This document shows positions 979 to 8,648 of a stretch of DNA of 64,000 nucleotides, piece after piece. Positions within the stretch are counted from its first letter, which is position 1; each line of letters begins with the position of its first letter. Below the pieces are notes generated by a model. That model worked only from the letters and a program-made list of their open reading frames with translations, did no database searches and was not told the origin of the DNA. The position numbers were made by a program, and so were the translations under genes. Source of the DNA: an uncultured Gammaproteobacteria bacterium (GTDB lineage Bacteria > Patescibacteriota > Microgenomatia > UBA12405); assembly GCA_964503465.1 (NCBI GenBank), contig CAZCYZ010000001.1, positions 298,306-362,305 of the forward strand, given 5' to 3'.

Positions 979-3645
979 ATGATCGACAAAATTATTGTTA
1001 AAGGAGCTAGGGAAAATAATCTTGCCAATGTCTCCTTTGAGTTTCCCAAAAACAAGCTAGTTGTTTTCACCGGTGTTTCTGGATCCGGCAAATCTTCCAT
1101 GGCCTTCGATACTCTTTTTGCCGAAGGCCAACGTCGTTATGTCGAAAGTTTGTCAAGTTACGCCCGTCAGTTCCTTGGTAATCTTAAACGACCCCAGGTT
1201 GATCTTATCGAAGGCCTGTCGCCTAGTATTGCCATCAATCAAAAAGCTATTTCCCACAACCCCCGCTCAACCGTTGGCACCGTTACCGAGGTCTATGATT
1301 ACCTCCGCTTACTCTTTGCTCGAATTGGCCACCCTCATTGCCCAAACTGCGGTCGTGAAGTTTCCCCTCAAACCAGCAAACAAATTGTCAACCAAATTTT
1401 GGACATCGCCAAATTAAATGCTGTCGGTTTAGATCATTACCGCTTTTTAGTTTTGGCACCATTGGTCCGGAATCGTGCCGGTGACTTTCGTGGTTTGGTC
1501 GAAAATCTTCGAAAACAAGGTTACAAATGGATCCGTATCGATAATCAAGTCGTCGATCTATATTCTGATTTTGGTATTGCCAAAACCAACAAGCACAACA
1601 TCGATGCTGTTATTGATCGGATTTCAATTAATAAAGACAGTCTCAAAGAACCCAAGATAATTTCTGACCGTTTAATTGATGACGTCGAAGCCTCCATGAA
1701 GTTAAGCAATGGCTTGGTTGTTGTTGGTCATGTTACCGACAACTCACTTGAGTTTCCCGACAAACCTACCCAAGTTACTGACACTCTCTATTCCGAAAAC
1801 TACGCTTGCCCTGTCTGCAATTTATCTCTCCCGGCCCTTGAACCCAGTTTGTTTTCTTTTAATTCCCCCCAAGGTGCCTGCCCCGAATGTAAGGGTTTGG
1901 GTTTTAAATACCAAATTGATCGTAGTAAGTTTCCCGAATGGAAGGCTAGGATGCTTGAGGCTAGATTTTTTAGCAGTACTTCCGAAAATGTCCGGGACGA
2001 ACTCTCCCGTTTTATGTCCCGCAAAGATTGTCCTGTTTGTCTTGGTTCTCGACTCAATCCCGAAGCCCTGTCAGTCCATATTTTTGGTCAAAATATTTAC
2101 CAGATTTGTCAACTGCCCATTGACAAACTTTGGCAGTTTATCAGCCAGCTTCCCCATGAACTAAAAAGTAGTCAGGAGATCGAAATTCTAACTCCCATCC
2201 AAGGCGAAATTAATTCTCGTCTAGAATTCTTACTTGCCGTTGGTCTTGACTATCTTTCCCTCGATCGTGAGGCCGGTACTCTTTCTTCCGGTGAATCCCA
2301 GCGAATTCGATTGGCTTCTCAAATTGGTACCGGTCTGACTGGAGTACTTTATATTCTTGATGAACCCACTATTGGTCTTCATCCCCGCGACAATGATCGT
2401 CTTATCGCCACTCTCAAGAAACTTCGGGAGCTAGGTAACACTGTTGTTGTCGTTGAACACGATGAAGATGTCATTCGTAACGCCGATTATCTAGTTGATT
2501 TTGGTCCCTTTGCTGGCCACTTGGGTGGCAACATTATTGCCCAGGGCTCTCTTGATGACATCAAAAAATCTTCCAAGTCCCTTACCGGTCAATATCTATC
2601 AGGTAAAAAATCTATTTCTTCCAACCAACCCACAACTCGTAACTCTCAACTAATAACTATTACCAATTGTTCTCAGTTTAACCTCAAGAACATAAATGTT
2701 TCCTTTCCCGTTGGCAAGTTTATTTCTGTCACCGGTGTTTCCGGTTCCGGCAAATCAACCCTGGTTCACGATACTATTTATGCTGGTTTGAAAAAACAAA
2801 TTTATGGTGCTTATTACGACACTATTGGTGCGTTTGACCACATAACCGGTTGGGAACGTATTAAAGATGTTTTACTAGTCGATCAATCTCCCATTGGTCG
2901 CACCCCCAGAAGTAATCCCGCCACCTATACAAAACTTTTTGACGACATTCGTGTTCTTTTGGCCAAAACTACCGAAGCTCAAATTCGAGGTTTTAGTAGC
3001 GGCCGTTTTTCTTTTAATGTCAAAGGTGGTCGCTGTGAGGCCTGTGAAGGTCAAGGGCAAATCAAAATTGAAATGCAATTTTTACCCGATATCTATGTTA
3101 CTTGTGATCAATGTCACGGTACCAGGTTTAAAGACGAAACCTTGGAGGTTGAGTACAAGGGTAAAAATATTGCCGAAATTCTTGATATGTCAGTTGACGA
3201 AGCTGTTAATTTTTTTGGCAATATCCCTAGTCTCAAGCGTAAGCTAGTTACCATTGAAGAAGTTGGCTTGGGCTATCTTCGCTTGGGTCAACCTAGCAAC
3301 ACTCTCTCCGGCGGCGAGTCACAGAGGTTAAAAATAAGTCGGGAACTAGTCAAAAAGAAAAGCAATCACACCCTTTATGTTCTTGACGAACCTACCACTG
3401 GCCTCCATTTTTATGATGTTGACAAACTTATCAAGGTACTTCGTAAATTAGTCGACATGGACAACACTGTTATGGTTATCGAACACAATCTTGATGTTAT
3501 CAAAAATACCGACTGGGTTATCGATCTTGGGCCCGAAGGCGGGGACAAAGGTGGCCGTATCGTCGCCTCTGGTCCGGTTGCCGATATTATAAAATGCCAA
3601 AACAGTTACACCGGCCAGTATCTCAAAAAGCACCTCAACGCCTAA
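979..3645 (+). CDS. uvrA: excinuclease ABC subunit A (UvrA)
   Basis: 888 aa. It has two ABC ATPase modules, with Walker A motifs GVSGSGKSS and GVSGSGKST. Zinc-finger CxxC pairs are present (CPNCGRE, CPVCN, CPECKG, CEACEG, CDQCHG). The LSGGESQR signature occurs twice. Confidence 0.95.
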   Translation: MIDKIIVKGARENNLANVSFEFPKNKLVVFTGVSGSGKSSMAFDTLFAEGQRRYVESLSSYARQFLGNLKRPQVDLIEGLSPSIAINQKAISHNPRSTVGTVTEVYDYLRLLFARIGHPHCPNCGREVSPQTSKQIVNQILDIAKLNAVGLDHYRFLVLAPLVRNRAGDFRGLVENLRKQGYKWIRIDNQVVDLYSDFGIAKTNKHNIDAVIDRISINKDSLKEPKIISDRLIDDVEASMKLSNGLVVVGHVTDNSLEFPDKPTQVTDTLYSENYACPVCNLSLPALEPSLFSFNSPQGACPECKGLGFKYQIDRSKFPEWKARMLEARFFSSTSENVRDELSRFMSRKDCPVCLGSRLNPEALSVHIFGQNIYQICQLPIDKLWQFISQLPHELKSSQEIEILTPIQGEINSRLEFLLAVGLDYLSLDREAGTLSSGESQRIRLASQIGTGLTGVLYILDEPTIGLHPRDNDRLIATLKKLRELGNTVVVVEHDEDVIRNADYLVDFGPFAGHLGGNIIAQGSLDDIKKSSKSLTGQYLSGKKSISSNQPTTRNSQLITITNCSQFNLKNINVSFPVGKFISVTGVSGSGKSTLVHDTIYAGLKKQIYGAYYDTIGAFDHITGWERIKDVLLVDQSPIGRTPRSNPATYTKLFDDIRVLLAKTTEAQIRGFSSGRFSFNVKGGRCEACEGQGQIKIEMQFLPDIYVTCDQCHGTRFKDETLEVEYKGKNIAEILDMSVDEAVNFFGNIPSLKRKLVTIEEVGLGYLRLGQPSNTLSGGESQRLKISRELVKKKSNHTLYVLDEPTTGLHFYDVDKLIKVLRKLVDMDNTVMVIEHNLDVIKNTDWVIDLGPEGGDKGGRIVASGPVADIIKCQNSYTGQYLKKHLNA

Positions 3646-3841
3646 TTATTGCCTCACGCCAACCCTCATTTCCAAATTCTGTAATTTCACCTGGAGTTAG
3701 CCAAGACTGTTGAATTGTGTGTCCAGTTTTTGGATCTATTCGCACCGCTCTCACAAATAACTCATTTCGACGCGCTGGATCAACATATTTTGGTGGTCTC
3801 GAGTTAATCTCTCCCAGTCGCGCCGTTCTTTCGTCCATCAA
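3635..3841 (-). CDS. hypothetical small protein (68 aa, TTG/ATG start)
   Basis: An ORF on the opposite strand in a 210-bp gap downstream of uvrA whose composition looks coding. No motif was recognised. It overlaps the uvrA stop by 11 bp. Confidence 0.2.
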   Translation of the reverse strand: MMDERTARLGEINSRPPKYVDPARRNELFVRAVRIDPKTGHTIQQSWLTPGEITEFGNEGWREAIIRR

Positions 3842-3854
3842 AAAAGATTATAAT

Positions 3855-4058
3855 ATGCTCACCATGAGTTTAAAAGCCAGCTTTCTCAAAATTTACGCCG
3901 ATATACCGCTCGGGGCTCGGGGAGAAATTATTGCTGTTATCAACGATGAGCCCATTACCTGGAACAGTGCTCGGGTTGAGATCGAGAACGATACCGCTAT
4001 CGGTAAAAAGATTCTCGACCAATTAGTTGATCTCAAAATTATCGATGCCCAAAATTAA
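3855..4058 (+). CDS. hypothetical small protein (about 67 aa)
   Basis: The start was moved to the ATG at 3855 (MLTMSLKASF...), which is preceded by TATAAT at 3849-3854. The longer 3717 start would overlap the minus-strand ORF. No recognised domain. Confidence 0.3.
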   Translation: MLTMSLKASFLKIYADIPLGARGEIIAVINDEPITWNSARVEIENDTAIGKKILDQLVDLKIIDAQN

Positions 4059-4263
4059 CCCTCTTGCCAAAAAACTCGCTCTTGCTCGCATTGCTGCTTA
4101 TTCTGAAAAAATCAAAATTCACCTTGGTGGTCAATCTACTCTTACTCGTCGGCAACTTTTGTCTCACGTCAAAAACGAAACCGCTACTGGTCAGAAGATA
4201 GTTGATATTGAAATAGAATTCTTACGTGATTTAGCCCATGGTCAAATTTATCGCGATGCCTAG
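4045..4263 (+). CDS. hypothetical small protein (72 aa)
   Basis: Starts at the ATG at 4045 (MPKINPLAKKLALARIAAY...) and overlaps the upstream small ORF by 14 bp. The two look like a co-translated pair. No recognised domain. Confidence 0.3.
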   Translation: MPKINPLAKKLALARIAAYSEKIKIHLGGQSTLTRRQLLSHVKNETATGQKIVDIEIEFLRDLAHGQIYRDA

Positions 4264-4900
4264 AAGTTTTCTTATCACCCGCCCCAATCATGATATTGCT
4301 ACCGCCTATCTTTCTGTTTATTCCCAGCTTCTGATTGATCAGGCAGTCAAAAAACAATTTACCGTCGTTGATCTTGCTGGCCAACTAGCCAATCCCAAAA
4401 ATTTTCATCAAAAAATCAAATCCCAGTTCTCTTTAATCCTTCTTAATGGTCATGGTTCATCACACATCATTAACGGTCAAGACAATCAACCCCTGATTAC
4501 TGCTCCAGTATCCGAATTTGATTTCCAATCCGCCATTATCTATGCCCGCAGTTGCCAAACCGCCACTGCTCTTGGTCCGTATCTTATTCTGCACCACGCT
4601 ACCGCCTTTATTGGTTACCAAAACGATTTTATTCTCGTCACTCTCGACGAGTCAGACCCTATTCATGACCCACTGGCCAAGTTTTTTCTCACCCCTAGTA
4701 ATGCTATTGTTAGCAGTCTTATCAACGGTAGAACTGTGGGTTATTCCAATCGACGTTCCAGAAAAATGACGCTTAAAAATCTCCAATCGGTTCTCAAGAG
4801 TCGTGTCAAAACTCGTCGCGAAATTGCTGCTTATCTTTGGCACAATATTAAATATCAACTAGTTTTGGGTAATGATCAATCTCGAATCTCTACCAACTAA
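4256..4900 (+). CDS. hypothetical protein with a caspase/gingipain-like (clan CD) His-Gly...Cys arrangement
   Basis: 214 aa from MPRSFLITRP. A hydrophobic strand followed by HG (FSLILLNGHG) comes about 34 residues before a second hydrophobic strand followed by Cys (SAIIYARSCQTA). This layout is the hallmark of clan CD peptidases. The ORF overlaps the uvrC start by 29 bp. Confidence 0.3.
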   Translation: MPRSFLITRPNHDIATAYLSVYSQLLIDQAVKKQFTVVDLAGQLANPKNFHQKIKSQFSLILLNGHGSSHIINGQDNQPLITAPVSEFDFQSAIIYARSCQTATALGPYLILHHATAFIGYQNDFILVTLDESDPIHDPLAKFFLTPSNAIVSSLINGRTVGYSNRRSRKMTLKNLQSVLKSRVKTRREIAAYLWHNIKYQLVLGNDQSRISTN

Positions 4901-6122
4901 ACCCGGTGTCTACATTTACCGTAACCTAGCAGGGGAAATTATTTATGTTGGCAAAGCCATCAACCTCAAAAAGCGAGTCTCCCAGTATTTTCAACGCGAT
5001 GACGCTTTGGGCCCAAAGACGGCTCGGCTCGTCTCTCAAATCAATTCCATCGAGACCAAAACTGTCGACTCCGAAATTGAGGCTCTAGTCCTCGAAGCCA
5101 GGCTTATCAAAAAACATCGTCCAAAATACAACTCACTTCTCAAAGATGACAAAAGCTATCTTTATATTACTATTTCTCACGACCACCTCCCCGTTATTTC
5201 CACTGCTCGAGTTACCAATTTACCCCCAAAATCTGACATCTATGGCCCATTTCCCAACGGTTCTGCTGTCAAATATCTTTTAAAAACCATTCGTCACGTT
5301 TTTCCTTATCTCTCCAAAAAACATTCATCATCTTCTTGTCTATATTGCCATCTTCACCTCTGTCCTGGTCCCGATCCAGACATCAAAGTTTATCGCCAAA
5401 ACATCGGTAAAATCAAAAAGATTCTTAACGGTCACTTTAAGCTTTTGCAACGCCAACTTCATCGGGAAATCAAACTTTTCACTGCCTCAGAAAACTTTGA
5501 GCTAGCTATTACTGCCCGTGATCAACTCCAGGCTCTCAACTATATTGTTTCCGGTTGGCACCACCTCAGTAATTTTTTTGGCCAGGTCAACCTCCCCGAA
5601 GACCGTGCCAATCACGCCGTTAACCAACTTTCCCTTGTCCTAAAAATTAACCCTATCCGTCGTATTGAATGTTTCGATATCTCTCAGCTTGGTAGTCACT
5701 TTTTTGTTGGCTCGATGACTGTTTGGCAAGACGGGCATCTCGATTCAGGTCAGTACCGTAAGTTTAGAATTCGTACCAAATTTACTCCCGACGACCAGTA
5801 TATGATACGCGAAGTAGTTTACCGTCGTCTCAAACACCCAGAGTGGGGGACGCCCGATTTAATTGTGGTTGATGGCGGTAAACCTCAAATCTCCGCCGTC
5901 TCCATTATCGACAATCTACCACCGACGATCAAAATTATTGGCCTAGCCAAAAAATTTGAAACCATAGTCTATAAAAAAAATACTAATTTTTTTGAAATTA
6001 ATCTTCCTGACAATTCTTCTGCCCTTAATCTTCTCAAATCCCTTCGCAACGAAGCCCATCGTTTTGCCAACAATTATCGTCGCCAACTAATTAGTCGTAA
6101 ACTGTTAGAATCAACTAAATGA
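4872..6122 (+). CDS. uvrC: excinuclease ABC subunit C (UvrC), short form lacking the C-terminal (HhH)2 domain
   Basis: A GIY-YIG motif is present (GVYIYRN...EIIYVGKAINLKKRVSQYF). A UVR-like helix follows (ITARDQLQALNYI). The RNase H-like endonuclease region has IECFDISQLGS. The C-terminus carries EAHRFANNYRRQ. At 416 aa it is much shorter than E. coli UvrC (610 aa). Confidence 0.85.
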   Translation: MINLESLPTKPGVYIYRNLAGEIIYVGKAINLKKRVSQYFQRDDALGPKTARLVSQINSIETKTVDSEIEALVLEARLIKKHRPKYNSLLKDDKSYLYITISHDHLPVISTARVTNLPPKSDIYGPFPNGSAVKYLLKTIRHVFPYLSKKHSSSSCLYCHLHLCPGPDPDIKVYRQNIGKIKKILNGHFKLLQRQLHREIKLFTASENFELAITARDQLQALNYIVSGWHHLSNFFGQVNLPEDRANHAVNQLSLVLKINPIRRIECFDISQLGSHFFVGSMTVWQDGHLDSGQYRKFRIRTKFTPDDQYMIREVVYRRLKHPEWGTPDLIVVDGGKPQISAVSIIDNLPPTIKIIGLAKKFETIVYKKNTNFFEINLPDNSSALNLLKSLRNEAHRFANNYRRQLISRKLLESTK

Positions 6123-6844: not shown

Positions 6845-7944
6845 CTAGCCAACAAACTCTTCATCTTCTTCAGGGCTTCTTGATTTGCACCAACCTCAAA
6901 ATGTTTTCTGGCTGGTTCTAATTTAATCACCAACCACTCGATCAAGGCATTTTTTAAATCAAGTGGAAAAAGTTTTTCCTCAGCATAATCCTTCTCCACT
7001 TCGTCGTAAGTAAGGTACTTCTTATTCCCACCAAACCTCCCCTCCCGTTTTATCTCAAATTCTCCTTTGTTTTCCCCCCAGAATACCAATGTTTTTACCC
7101 AATTTAACAGGGGATTATGCTCCACCATTTTTGGTGGCCCATATGCCTTCATAATCTTAACCCTAATTTCTTCGGGGTCATCGTGGACAAATATCGCTGA
7201 TCCCGGTTTTGACTTACTCATTTTGAGTGATTCGTCGTTGTTTATTCCAGTCTCCGGTGCTGTTAAGCCGGCAATCAAGTTTTGATGTATTGCAATTGGT
7301 GCCCAGCCACCAGGAAGTTTAGGTAAAGCCTCCCGCGCAATCACATGGGCCTTTCTTTGATCCATTCCAGCGTGGGCTAAAGTTATCCCCATCGTAACGA
7401 TATCAGCCACTTGTAATGGTGGATAGAATAGTGTCGCCATATCTACCTCCTGGCCTTGTTTTTTCCCCATAATCGAAATCGATCGTAAATTTCTCGACAA
7501 AGTTATTTGTTTTCCAACTCGCATAAAAGTCTCCCAATGTTGTGGGTTATTTTCATATAGTTCTTTGCCACTAACAAATTCAACTTCGTTTTCTCCCACC
7601 CCAAAGCATTTCAGCGAGGCAATCAACGCTTGCTTAAAGTAATTCTCTGCCGCCCAGCGAATATTCTCCCAGTTACCGCCTAACTTGTTGTTCAGGTAAG
7701 TGTGAAAGTCAGCCAAGAATATTCGACACCTCACTCCAGCTTTTAGGAAATCAGCAATTTTTCCCATTGACATCAATCCCGTCCCAAGGTGTACCAATCC
7801 CGATATCTCAAAACCAATATAGTGGTTGATTACTTTATTGGACTCGACTAATGCCCTCAGATCTCCCTCCGTCAGTACTTCCTGACAATTTCTGGTTATT
7901 AATTGAAATTTCTCATCATTCGTCATTAGGCTAGTATAACTCAA
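6841..7944 (-). CDS. tyrS: tyrosine--tRNA ligase, archaeal/eukaryotic type (class I, no S4 domain); tryptophanyl-tRNA ligase not fully excluded
   Basis: The HIGH-region analogue is HYIGFEISGLVHLGTG. It also has LADFHTYLNNK and a KMSKS motif (KMSKSKPGSAIF). At 367 aa it has no C-terminal S4 domain. Confidence 0.6.
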   Translation of the reverse strand: MSYTSLMTNDEKFQLITRNCQEVLTEGDLRALVESNKVINHYIGFEISGLVHLGTGLMSMGKIADFLKAGVRCRIFLADFHTYLNNKLGGNWENIRWAAENYFKQALIASLKCFGVGENEVEFVSGKELYENNPQHWETFMRVGKQITLSRNLRSISIMGKKQGQEVDMATLFYPPLQVADIVTMGITLAHAGMDQRKAHVIAREALPKLPGGWAPIAIHQNLIAGLTAPETGINNDESLKMSKSKPGSAIFVHDDPEEIRVKIMKAYGPPKMVEHNPLLNWVKTLVFWGENKGEFEIKREGRFGGNKKYLTYDEVEKDYAEEKLFPLDLKNALIEWLVIKLEPARKHFEVGANQEALKKMKSLLAS

Positions 7945-8648
7945 TAATCACTTCTTCTGGCAAAGACCAATAGTCTTTTCCAATCTGTGCCCAACGGCCA
8001 GCAGGTTTGAAGTATCAAAGTTTCTTTGTCTGGTTCAGTGTAGTTTAAATATTCCACCTCCTGGGCCGCCACTACCTTTTTTTGATAAACCCGATAGTTA
8101 TAAACCAATCCTTTGTATTTAATGAAAATAATATCATCATCCTTAAGCTCCCCTAGTAGATAAAAAACTGCGTTTTTCCGAGCCATCCCCACTCCCTGTC
8201 GCGTCGAATGGGCAAATACATAGGTACTTTTCCCCACTCCATTTCCTGGAGGGCTACTTCCCTTGGATTGAGCCACCACCTCATCCTCCAGTACTTTCAG
8301 ATACTCTCCAGGGTCATATGGTGACACCCCTTCGATTACTTTCGACTTAGCCAAAATTTTTGGGATTTCAATTTCATAATTACTATCCATTATTCCTATT
8401 GTCGGGGTTGGATACACCACCATCTCATCACCACCCTGCCGCCTGGTGCTCATTTCATACCTCAAGATTGCCCTTCCTAGCGGGTAATAAAGGTATATAC
8501 CATAAATCATTGCACCCACCATCAAGCTATTTCCTAGGCCAAAAATTACCTTTTTATAACCAGGAGGATTATGGTAAATTACACCACTCTTTTTTACCTT
8601 CACTGACCTTTTTTTAGGCACCACTCTAAAAAAGTCCAACATTACCAT
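7941..8648 (-). CDS. sortase family transpeptidase (membrane-anchored)
   Basis: N-terminal TM helix (VIFGLGNSLMVGAMIYGIYLYY). A His region follows (YVFAHSTRQG). The catalytic TLxTC-type motif is ETLILQTCWP, with a downstream Arg (KRLLVFA). Confidence 0.55.
   Translation of the reverse strand: MVMLDFFRVVPKKRSVKVKKSGVIYHNPPGYKKVIFGLGNSLMVGAMIYGIYLYYPLGRAILRYEMSTRRQGGDEMVVYPTPTIGIMDSNYEIEIPKILAKSKVIEGVSPYDPGEYLKVLEDEVVAQSKGSSPPGNGVGKSTYVFAHSTRQGVGMARKNAVFYLLGELKDDDIIFIKYKGLVYNYRVYQKKVVAAQEVEYLNYTEPDKETLILQTCWPLGTDWKRLLVFARRSDY

Follow-up and report, generated by a model that had tools for sequence, protein, structure and literature searches.

The gap between uvrA and uvrC in a stretch of 64,000 nucleotides (nt) of contig CAZCYZ010000001.1 (GenBank assembly GCA_964503465.1, positions 298,306 to 362,305; hereafter the window) contains an open reading frame (ORF) of 214 amino acids (aa) that very probably encodes a clan CD peptidase with a His66/Cys100 catalytic dyad. 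The peptidase gene is the third of a conserved, self-contained and translationally coupled cassette, whose first two genes, s1 and s2, encode small soluble proteins. The description that fits it best is that of a new, minimal clan CD family whose conserved three-gene architecture is likewise new. The module has the following features in the window.

s1, 3864..4058, + strand: small soluble protein of 64 aa (67 aa from ATG 3855); cassette gene 1
s2, 4045..4263, + strand: small soluble protein of 72 aa; cassette gene 2; overlaps s1 by 14 nt and the peptidase gene by 8 nt
peptidase, 4256..4900, + strand: predicted 214-aa minimal clan CD (gingipain/CHAT-like) cysteine peptidase homologue; overlaps uvrC by 29 nt
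Asp13 codon, 4292..4294, + strand: N-terminus of helix alpha1; candidate S1 (P1-binding) acid
Gly65-His66-Gly67 codons, 4448..4456, + strand: proposed catalytic His with its flanking glycines
Cys100 codon, 4553..4555, + strand: proposed catalytic nucleophile

A first-pass annotation, made from the letters of the window, had pointed to a 214-aa product in which one hydrophobic strand ends in HG and another, about 34 residues later, ends in Cys. This description is exact: FSLILLNGHG holds His66 (codon 4451-4453), SAIIYARSCQTA holds Cys100, and 34 residues separate the two. The ORF (4238/4256..4900, + strand) is taken to start at ATG 4256 rather than 4238 because this start matches the N-termini of homologues better and yields an 8-nt overlap with the s2 stop codon, the modal overlap of the family. 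The two small upstream ORFs of that annotation are also present (3855/3864-4058 and 4045-4263); since s1 homologues begin with MSLK, as ATG 3864 would give, that ATG is the most likely start of s1.

Sequence family, fold and proposed catalytic dyad

Sequence searches. A word-indexed search found 37 homologues of the peptidase, of about 210-220 aa, and an exhaustive search at least 709 clusters at 50% identity with E<=1e-3, with 367 at E<=1e-10. Family members are standalone domains of about 205-220 aa. Named homologues are few, each a ‘hypothetical protein’ of Daviesbacteria, Paceibacterota or ‘Patescibacteria group’. Judged by sequence, the 37 homologues, the 709 clusters and the invariant His and Cys exclude a chance ORF and mark a real, widespread, unannotated gene family. 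None of the 37 homologues has a Pfam domain, and searches of Pfam, NCBIfam, PADLOC, PHROGs and the PDB (phmmer/hmmsearch) gave no family for the peptidase, s1, s2 or the family alignments. When 36 family members were searched singly, no family was matched beyond sub-threshold matches to CHAT (Pfam PF12770) in two of them (best E 0.036). Open-access literature on candidate phyla radiation (CPR) bacteria, Patescibacteria or DPANN archaea together with caspases, clan CD or gingipains contained nothing on the s1-s2-peptidase family.

Rare variants of 232-246 aa (P0074, P0157 and P0162) have a C-terminal hydrophobic tail, possibly a membrane anchor. In P0157, GRG replaces GHG and the Cys is also lost, making it a likely pseudo-enzyme.

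Fold. An AlphaFold2 model built from a 36-sequence alignment has a mean predicted local distance difference test (pLDDT) of 96.2 and a predicted template modelling score (pTM) of 0.92. Its elements are beta1 (4-9), alpha1 (14-32), beta2 (36-41), alpha2 (47-54), beta3 (60-64), a beta-hairpin (71-82), beta4 (94-98), alpha3 (106-112) and beta5 (117-121), followed by three helices across 139-200 and beta6 (201-205). The model is thus an alpha/beta/alpha sandwich with the clan CD core of beta1-beta4 and alpha1-alpha3, extended to six strands. The fold-level guess of clan CD in the first-pass annotation, with its proposal to run Foldseek on an AlphaFold model, is borne out: the top Foldseek match in the PDB is gingipain R (1cvr; E 2.3e-4, template modelling score 0.59), followed by caspase-11, caspase-4, C11 peptidases, separase, the CHAT anti-sigma factor DdvA, MALT1 and legumain. 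A structure comparison table gives the following values for the model.

RgpB: 18.8 (178 residues aligned, 2.3 Å)
Kgp: 17.8
SAVED-CHAT: 16.2
Separase: 14.0
Metacaspase-9: 13.8
OaAEP1: 12.9
Legumain: 12.4
GPI transamidase: 11.3
Caspases: about 10-11

The modelled structure most resembles the catalytic B-subdomain of gingipains and CHAT domains. Strand beta1 begins at residue 4 and there is no hydrophobic segment; signal peptide, prodomain, sensor domain and an internal linker for autoprocessing are all absent. Few natural catalytic domains of clan CD are as small, and the protein is devoid of a regulatory appendage of its own.

Catalytic dyad. Clan CD enzymes have a His/Cys dyad, His first, at the C-terminal ends of beta3 and beta4 (PMC4357240). 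Here His66 lies two residues past strand 60-64 and Cys100 two past strand 94-98, at the ends of the hydrophobic blocks LILLNGH-G and AIIYARS-C, with a small residue before the Cys. Both residues are invariant in the 36 aligned homologues. In a larger set of 184 homologues, gathered purely by sequence search and used for residue counts, His66 is conserved in 182/183, Cys100 in 180/181, and Gly65 and Gly67 in 181/183 and 183/183 respectively; residue 99 is one of Ser, Ala and Thr in 177/184. The His is likewise kept in all 118 of the listed loci recovered with a DNA pattern in which it was not specified, and the one family member without it is also without the Cys. The expectation that homologues would keep both residues therefore held.

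A non-catalytic caspase-fold scaffold, comparable to the pseudo-protease domains of Raptor or c-FLIP, is hardly credible given that more than 99% of members retain the His, the Cys and the glycines on either side of the His, and that the other conserved residues fall in the loops after beta1, beta3, beta4 and beta5, where clan CD active sites sit.

The first-pass annotation had also called the His-Cys spacing gingipain-like, and the 34 residues of the peptidase indeed compare with 33 between His211 and Cys244 of RgpB (sequence confirmed against 1cvr). When the family profile was aligned with RgpB using hhalign, the best local match placed FSLILLNGHGSSH on RgpB ISLVNYTGHGSET (His211), so that NGHGS of the peptidase sits on TGHGS of RgpB; this match spans 13 columns with P 0.16 and is not significant alone. 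Residue equivalences to RgpB could not be fixed by sequence, as this 13-column GHG match is purely local and a forced global alignment is meaningless.

Candidate specificity. RgpB binds the P1 Arg of its substrates through Asp163 on helix alpha1, and Gly210 and Gly212, which flank the catalytic His, hydrogen-bond the same Arg (PMC4357240). Position 13 of the peptidase is acidic in 178 of 179 homologues (Asp in 151, Glu in 27), and helix 14-32 comes after strand 4-9. From the order of secondary-structure elements, rather than from a superposition, Asp/Glu13 may be the counterpart of Asp163. Because this acidic residue on alpha1 and the Gly-His-Gly loop would sit where RgpB has the elements that bind the P1 Arg, we give specificity for a basic residue (Arg or Lys) at P1 a little under an even chance.

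We propose that the peptidase is a catalytically active cysteine endopeptidase of the cytoplasm, consisting of one domain with the caspase-haemoglobinase fold of MEROPS clan CD. His66 (in N-G-H-G) would serve as general base and Cys100 (in Y-A-R-S-C) as nucleophile, and cleavage would follow a basic residue, Arg or Lys.

The three-gene cassette and its distribution

Cassette survey. At least 120 loci were recovered from species-representative genomes with a degenerate DNA pattern over the motifs Y-A-x-x-C...I-G-Y...D-x-x-A-x-x-F-x-x-P. Together with six other fetched loci and the window they make up 127 sources, 125 of which hold a true member of the peptidase family; counts that follow are among the matches listed. 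Profiles of s1 and s2 place both genes directly upstream of the peptidase gene, in the same order and on the same strand, in 113 of 114 listed loci with room upstream. The exception is a locus of a Levybacteria metagenome-assembled genome (MAG; L033 5220-5684), whose peptidase gene is truncated to about 155 aa and is a probable pseudogene or assembly break. The gap from s1 to s2 has a median of +1 nt and a mode of a 4-nt overlap; that from s2 to the peptidase gene has a median of -8 nt, and 94% of these s2-peptidase junctions are at most 10 nt. Neither fusions of s1 or s2 with the peptidase nor a fourth conserved small ORF beside the cassette were found when looked for.

Small proteins. The s1 family is well conserved, with invariant F, P, R and W residues and the motifs YANLP...R.EI...TW..A..E, and the s2 family is invariant at R15 and G49. 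Each thus carries one invariant Arg: Arg15 in s2 and, in s1, Arg19 counted from ATG 3864 or Arg22 counted from ATG 3855. Their mutual resemblance is weak (hhalign P 1e-3), and neither contains a hydrophobic segment. A structure model of s1 was built from six close homologues; s2 matches nothing in Pfam or the PDB. By median isoelectric point (pI) the s2 family is acidic (5.0) and the peptidase family basic (9.15); the s2 of the window, unlike its family, is itself basic (pI 9.9).

Given the conservation of the cassette in both Patescibacteria and DPANN archaea, s1 and s2 are probably dedicated functional partners of the peptidase. In clan CD, an inhibitory segment or partner holds nearly every enzyme inactive (Table 2 of PMC4357240), and since no such restraint exists in cis here, s1 and s2 suggest themselves as trans regulators, as substrates or as both. 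One or both might bind the basic enzyme as a stand-in for the prodomain that it lacks, comparable to securin or the prodomain of gingipains, or be its specific substrates, or do both. By this analogy a role as trans-inhibitors or substrates is conceivable, and we propose it tentatively. For the module as a whole, the explanation that we find best, and hold to be somewhat probable, is an active clan CD endopeptidase in a cassette with s1 and s2 as its trans regulators and/or substrates.

The main activity of the peptidase might instead be that of a transpeptidase or ligase (compare GPI8, PorU and the asparaginyl ligases), with s1 and/or s2 being processed and joined, cyclised or conjugated. This seems improbable: the C-terminal tails of s1 and s2 vary and show no conserved recognition or propeptide motif, the top structural matches are hydrolases (gingipains, CHAT), and an Asn/Asp-type S1 signature is absent.

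Hosts. Patescibacteria with the cassette include Levy-, Woese-, Davies-, Gottesman-, Roizman-, Beckwith-, Shapiro-, Collier-, Nomura-, Kaiser-, Taylor-, Moran-, Magasanik-, Kuenen-, Uhr- and Ryanbacteria and Saccharibacteria. Archaea account for 17 of 122 labelled loci, nearly all of them DPANN (Woese-, Pace-, Nano- and Aenigmatarchaeota), with one labelled Bathyarchaeia; their copies are mostly nearest relatives of one another, and that of an Aenigmatarchaeota lies on a complete chromosome of 875 kb. The cassette is kept in genomes under 1 Mb and synteny is retained down to 52% identity; inheritance looks largely vertical. The few other hosts include a cultured Bacteroidota isolate, Nemorincola caseinilytica JCM 32105.

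Several MAGs are labelled Gammaproteobacteria, Pseudomonadales or Methanosarcinales, with copies whose nearest relatives are from CPR or DPANN. The ‘Gammaproteobacteria’ MAGs that group with CPR lineages are probably mislabelled, and the relationships of the other copies suggest the same for the Pseudomonadales and Methanosarcinales records. Two divergent cassette copies occur on different contigs in each of two MAGs (L020/L034 in JAZDKF01, L050/L072 in CAYMYO01), which may reflect paralogy or bin contamination.

The N. caseinilytica cassette is complete (L085 6164-7244, minus strand) and has 51% GC. It adjoins an HTH_3 gene, a Gabija-like pair of an OLD-family ATPase/TOPRIM nuclease and a UvrD-like helicase, and a TraG/TraD-like coupling protein. 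Because of the adjoining Gabija-like pair and TraG-like protein, this copy was probably acquired horizontally, on a conjugative or defence island.

Significance. Patescibacteria and DPANN archaea have small genomes rich in genes of unknown function, and a widespread three-gene unit of theirs now gains a fold-level enzymatic assignment that names candidate catalytic residues and a testable specificity hypothesis. A peptidase free of appendages offers a clean system for the control of clan CD proteases in trans, and the cultured N. caseinilytica is a tractable host that makes experiments feasible. More speculatively, and with odds that we put well short of even, the cassette could be an undescribed, self-contained proteolytic switch typical of ultra-small episymbiotic Patescibacteria and DPANN archaea, in which the protease is gated in trans by, or irreversibly processes, two orphan-fold proteins and controls a cellular decision, for instance to stop growing, to attach to a host or detach from it, or to die. 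If so, it would represent not one more peptidase family but a regulatory or addiction module of a new, protease-based class.

Genomic neighbourhood and the uvr genes

The following genes surround the module in the window and are outside it.

uvrB 3' end, 1-99: UVR motif
Exo_endo_phos (EEP) family gene, 103-855, + strand: Pfam E 1e-15; between the uvrB end and uvrA
uvrA, 979..3645, + strand: Pfam UvrA_inter, ABC_tran
uvrC, 4872..6122, + strand: Pfam GIY-YIG, UvrC_RNaseH_dom

The flanking Pfam domains confirm the uvrA-uvrC placement given by the first-pass annotation, which had gone on to suggest a damage-triggered protease in a DNA-repair operon. Coupling to nucleotide excision repair might be read from the position of the cassette in the window and its clade, from the uvrC overlap and from the lack of a terminator-like site between cassette and uvrC. 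Since its composition is native and no such site intervenes, the window cassette is probably co-transcribed with uvrC. Scattered DNA-related neighbours occur elsewhere (DprA, SNase, RadC, DNA_alkylation). The context survey nevertheless largely refutes a repair role, which we regard as very unlikely: none of the other gene families of at least 90 aa near the cassette, the uvr genes among them, occurs in more than 5 of the 120 listed unique loci, and the immediate neighbours are functionally diverse. The order uvrA-cassette-uvrC is kept only in the clade of the window (homologues of 52-71% identity), and one sister genome carries an inserted YafQ toxin-antitoxin pair in this gap too, which implies that the gap simply tolerates insertions. 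The association of the cassette with uvr genes is local, not general, which corrects a tempting but mistaken conclusion: that a gene found within a uvr operon serves DNA repair.

The 150 genes immediately next to the cassettes have scattered functions (FtsZ, GT87, NUDIX, RadC, ribosomal protein L5, tRNA synthetases, MurJ). A few of them are AbiEi, Fic or integrase genes, and a test for enrichment of defence-island genes among them gave scattered matches alone. These data bear on a further possibility, a toxin-antitoxin or abortive-infection module whose toxic protease is held by the small protein(s) until phage attack or stress frees it. The tight operon, the Nemorincola island and the occasional double copies would suit such a module, but most neighbours are housekeeping genes (FtsZ, L5, tRNA synthetases, MurJ), the same DNA pattern had zero matches in IMG/VR viral contigs, and none of the three proteins matches a defence or toxin-antitoxin family in PADLOC-DB at E<=10. 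With the native composition, the largely vertical inheritance and the retention in genomes under 1 Mb also against it, we consider it rather unlikely, and continue to prefer an endopeptidase with s1 and s2 as partners.

Other observations in the window. At the uvrB-uvrA junction, the related genome L127 holds just a 72-aa minus-strand gene where the window holds the Exo_endo_phos gene; the uvrB-uvrA-uvrC string of this lineage therefore takes insertions at each junction. The 210-nt spacer between the uvrA stop and s1 (3646-3863) is unexplained; in sister genomes its place is taken by a 7-nt gap or a YafQ-type toxin-antitoxin pair. It contains a 68-aa antisense ORF (3635-3841, minus strand) with a -35/-10-like site upstream (3874->3847, 10/12 matches), for which neither a homologue in any fetched locus nor a Pfam or NCBIfam match was found. 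Downstream, the window and sister genomes share the block uvrC, GT2, tRNA synthetase class Ib, sortase, GreA and tRNA synthetase class II (tRNA-synt_2). The sortase-family gene lies at 7941-8648 (minus strand) and has a Pfam Sortase match on the identical locus L130.

Comparison with known systems

Gingipains (C25). Of the gingipains RgpB and Kgp, RgpB has a catalytic domain of about 350 aa and an additional immunoglobulin-like domain, whereas the whole peptidase is 214 aa. The A-subdomain (and with it the 10-stranded sheet of A and B subdomains), the signal peptide, the 229-aa prodomain, the immunoglobulin-like domain and the C-terminal domain for secretion are all absent. Gingipains are secreted virulence factors; the peptidase appears to be cytoplasmic and is encoded with two small partner genes. 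Neither the window protein nor the 36 homologues match Peptidase_C25 at E<=10, and a PDB profile search with the family did not match gingipain.

CHAT proteases. SAVED-CHAT, Craspase TPR-CHAT/Csx29 and DdvA are fused to or docked on sensors (SAVED, TPR, transmembrane) and found in defence loci. The peptidase, in contrast, is a bare catalytic domain without sensor or repeat fusion, has no above-threshold CHAT match and no PADLOC match, and has mostly housekeeping neighbours.

Caspases, metacaspases and orthocaspases (C14). The p20/p10 linker is absent from the peptidase, in which 17 residues, including alpha3, lead from Cys100 to beta5. Caspases use an Arg/Gln/Arg S1 set for Asp specificity, while the candidate S1 residues here are acidic. 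No Pfam match to Peptidase_C14 was found for the window protein or the 36 homologues.

Inhibited clan CD enzymes. Separase with securin, and gingipains and legumain with their prodomains, are parallels by analogy only. No sequence or fold similarity of s1 or s2 to securin or any prodomain was found; the peptidase has no inhibitor in cis and has two co-translated small proteins. Because the structure and motifs are those of clan CD, while the sequences and architectures of C25, CHAT and C14 are not matched, the peptidase is placed in a family of its own within the clan.
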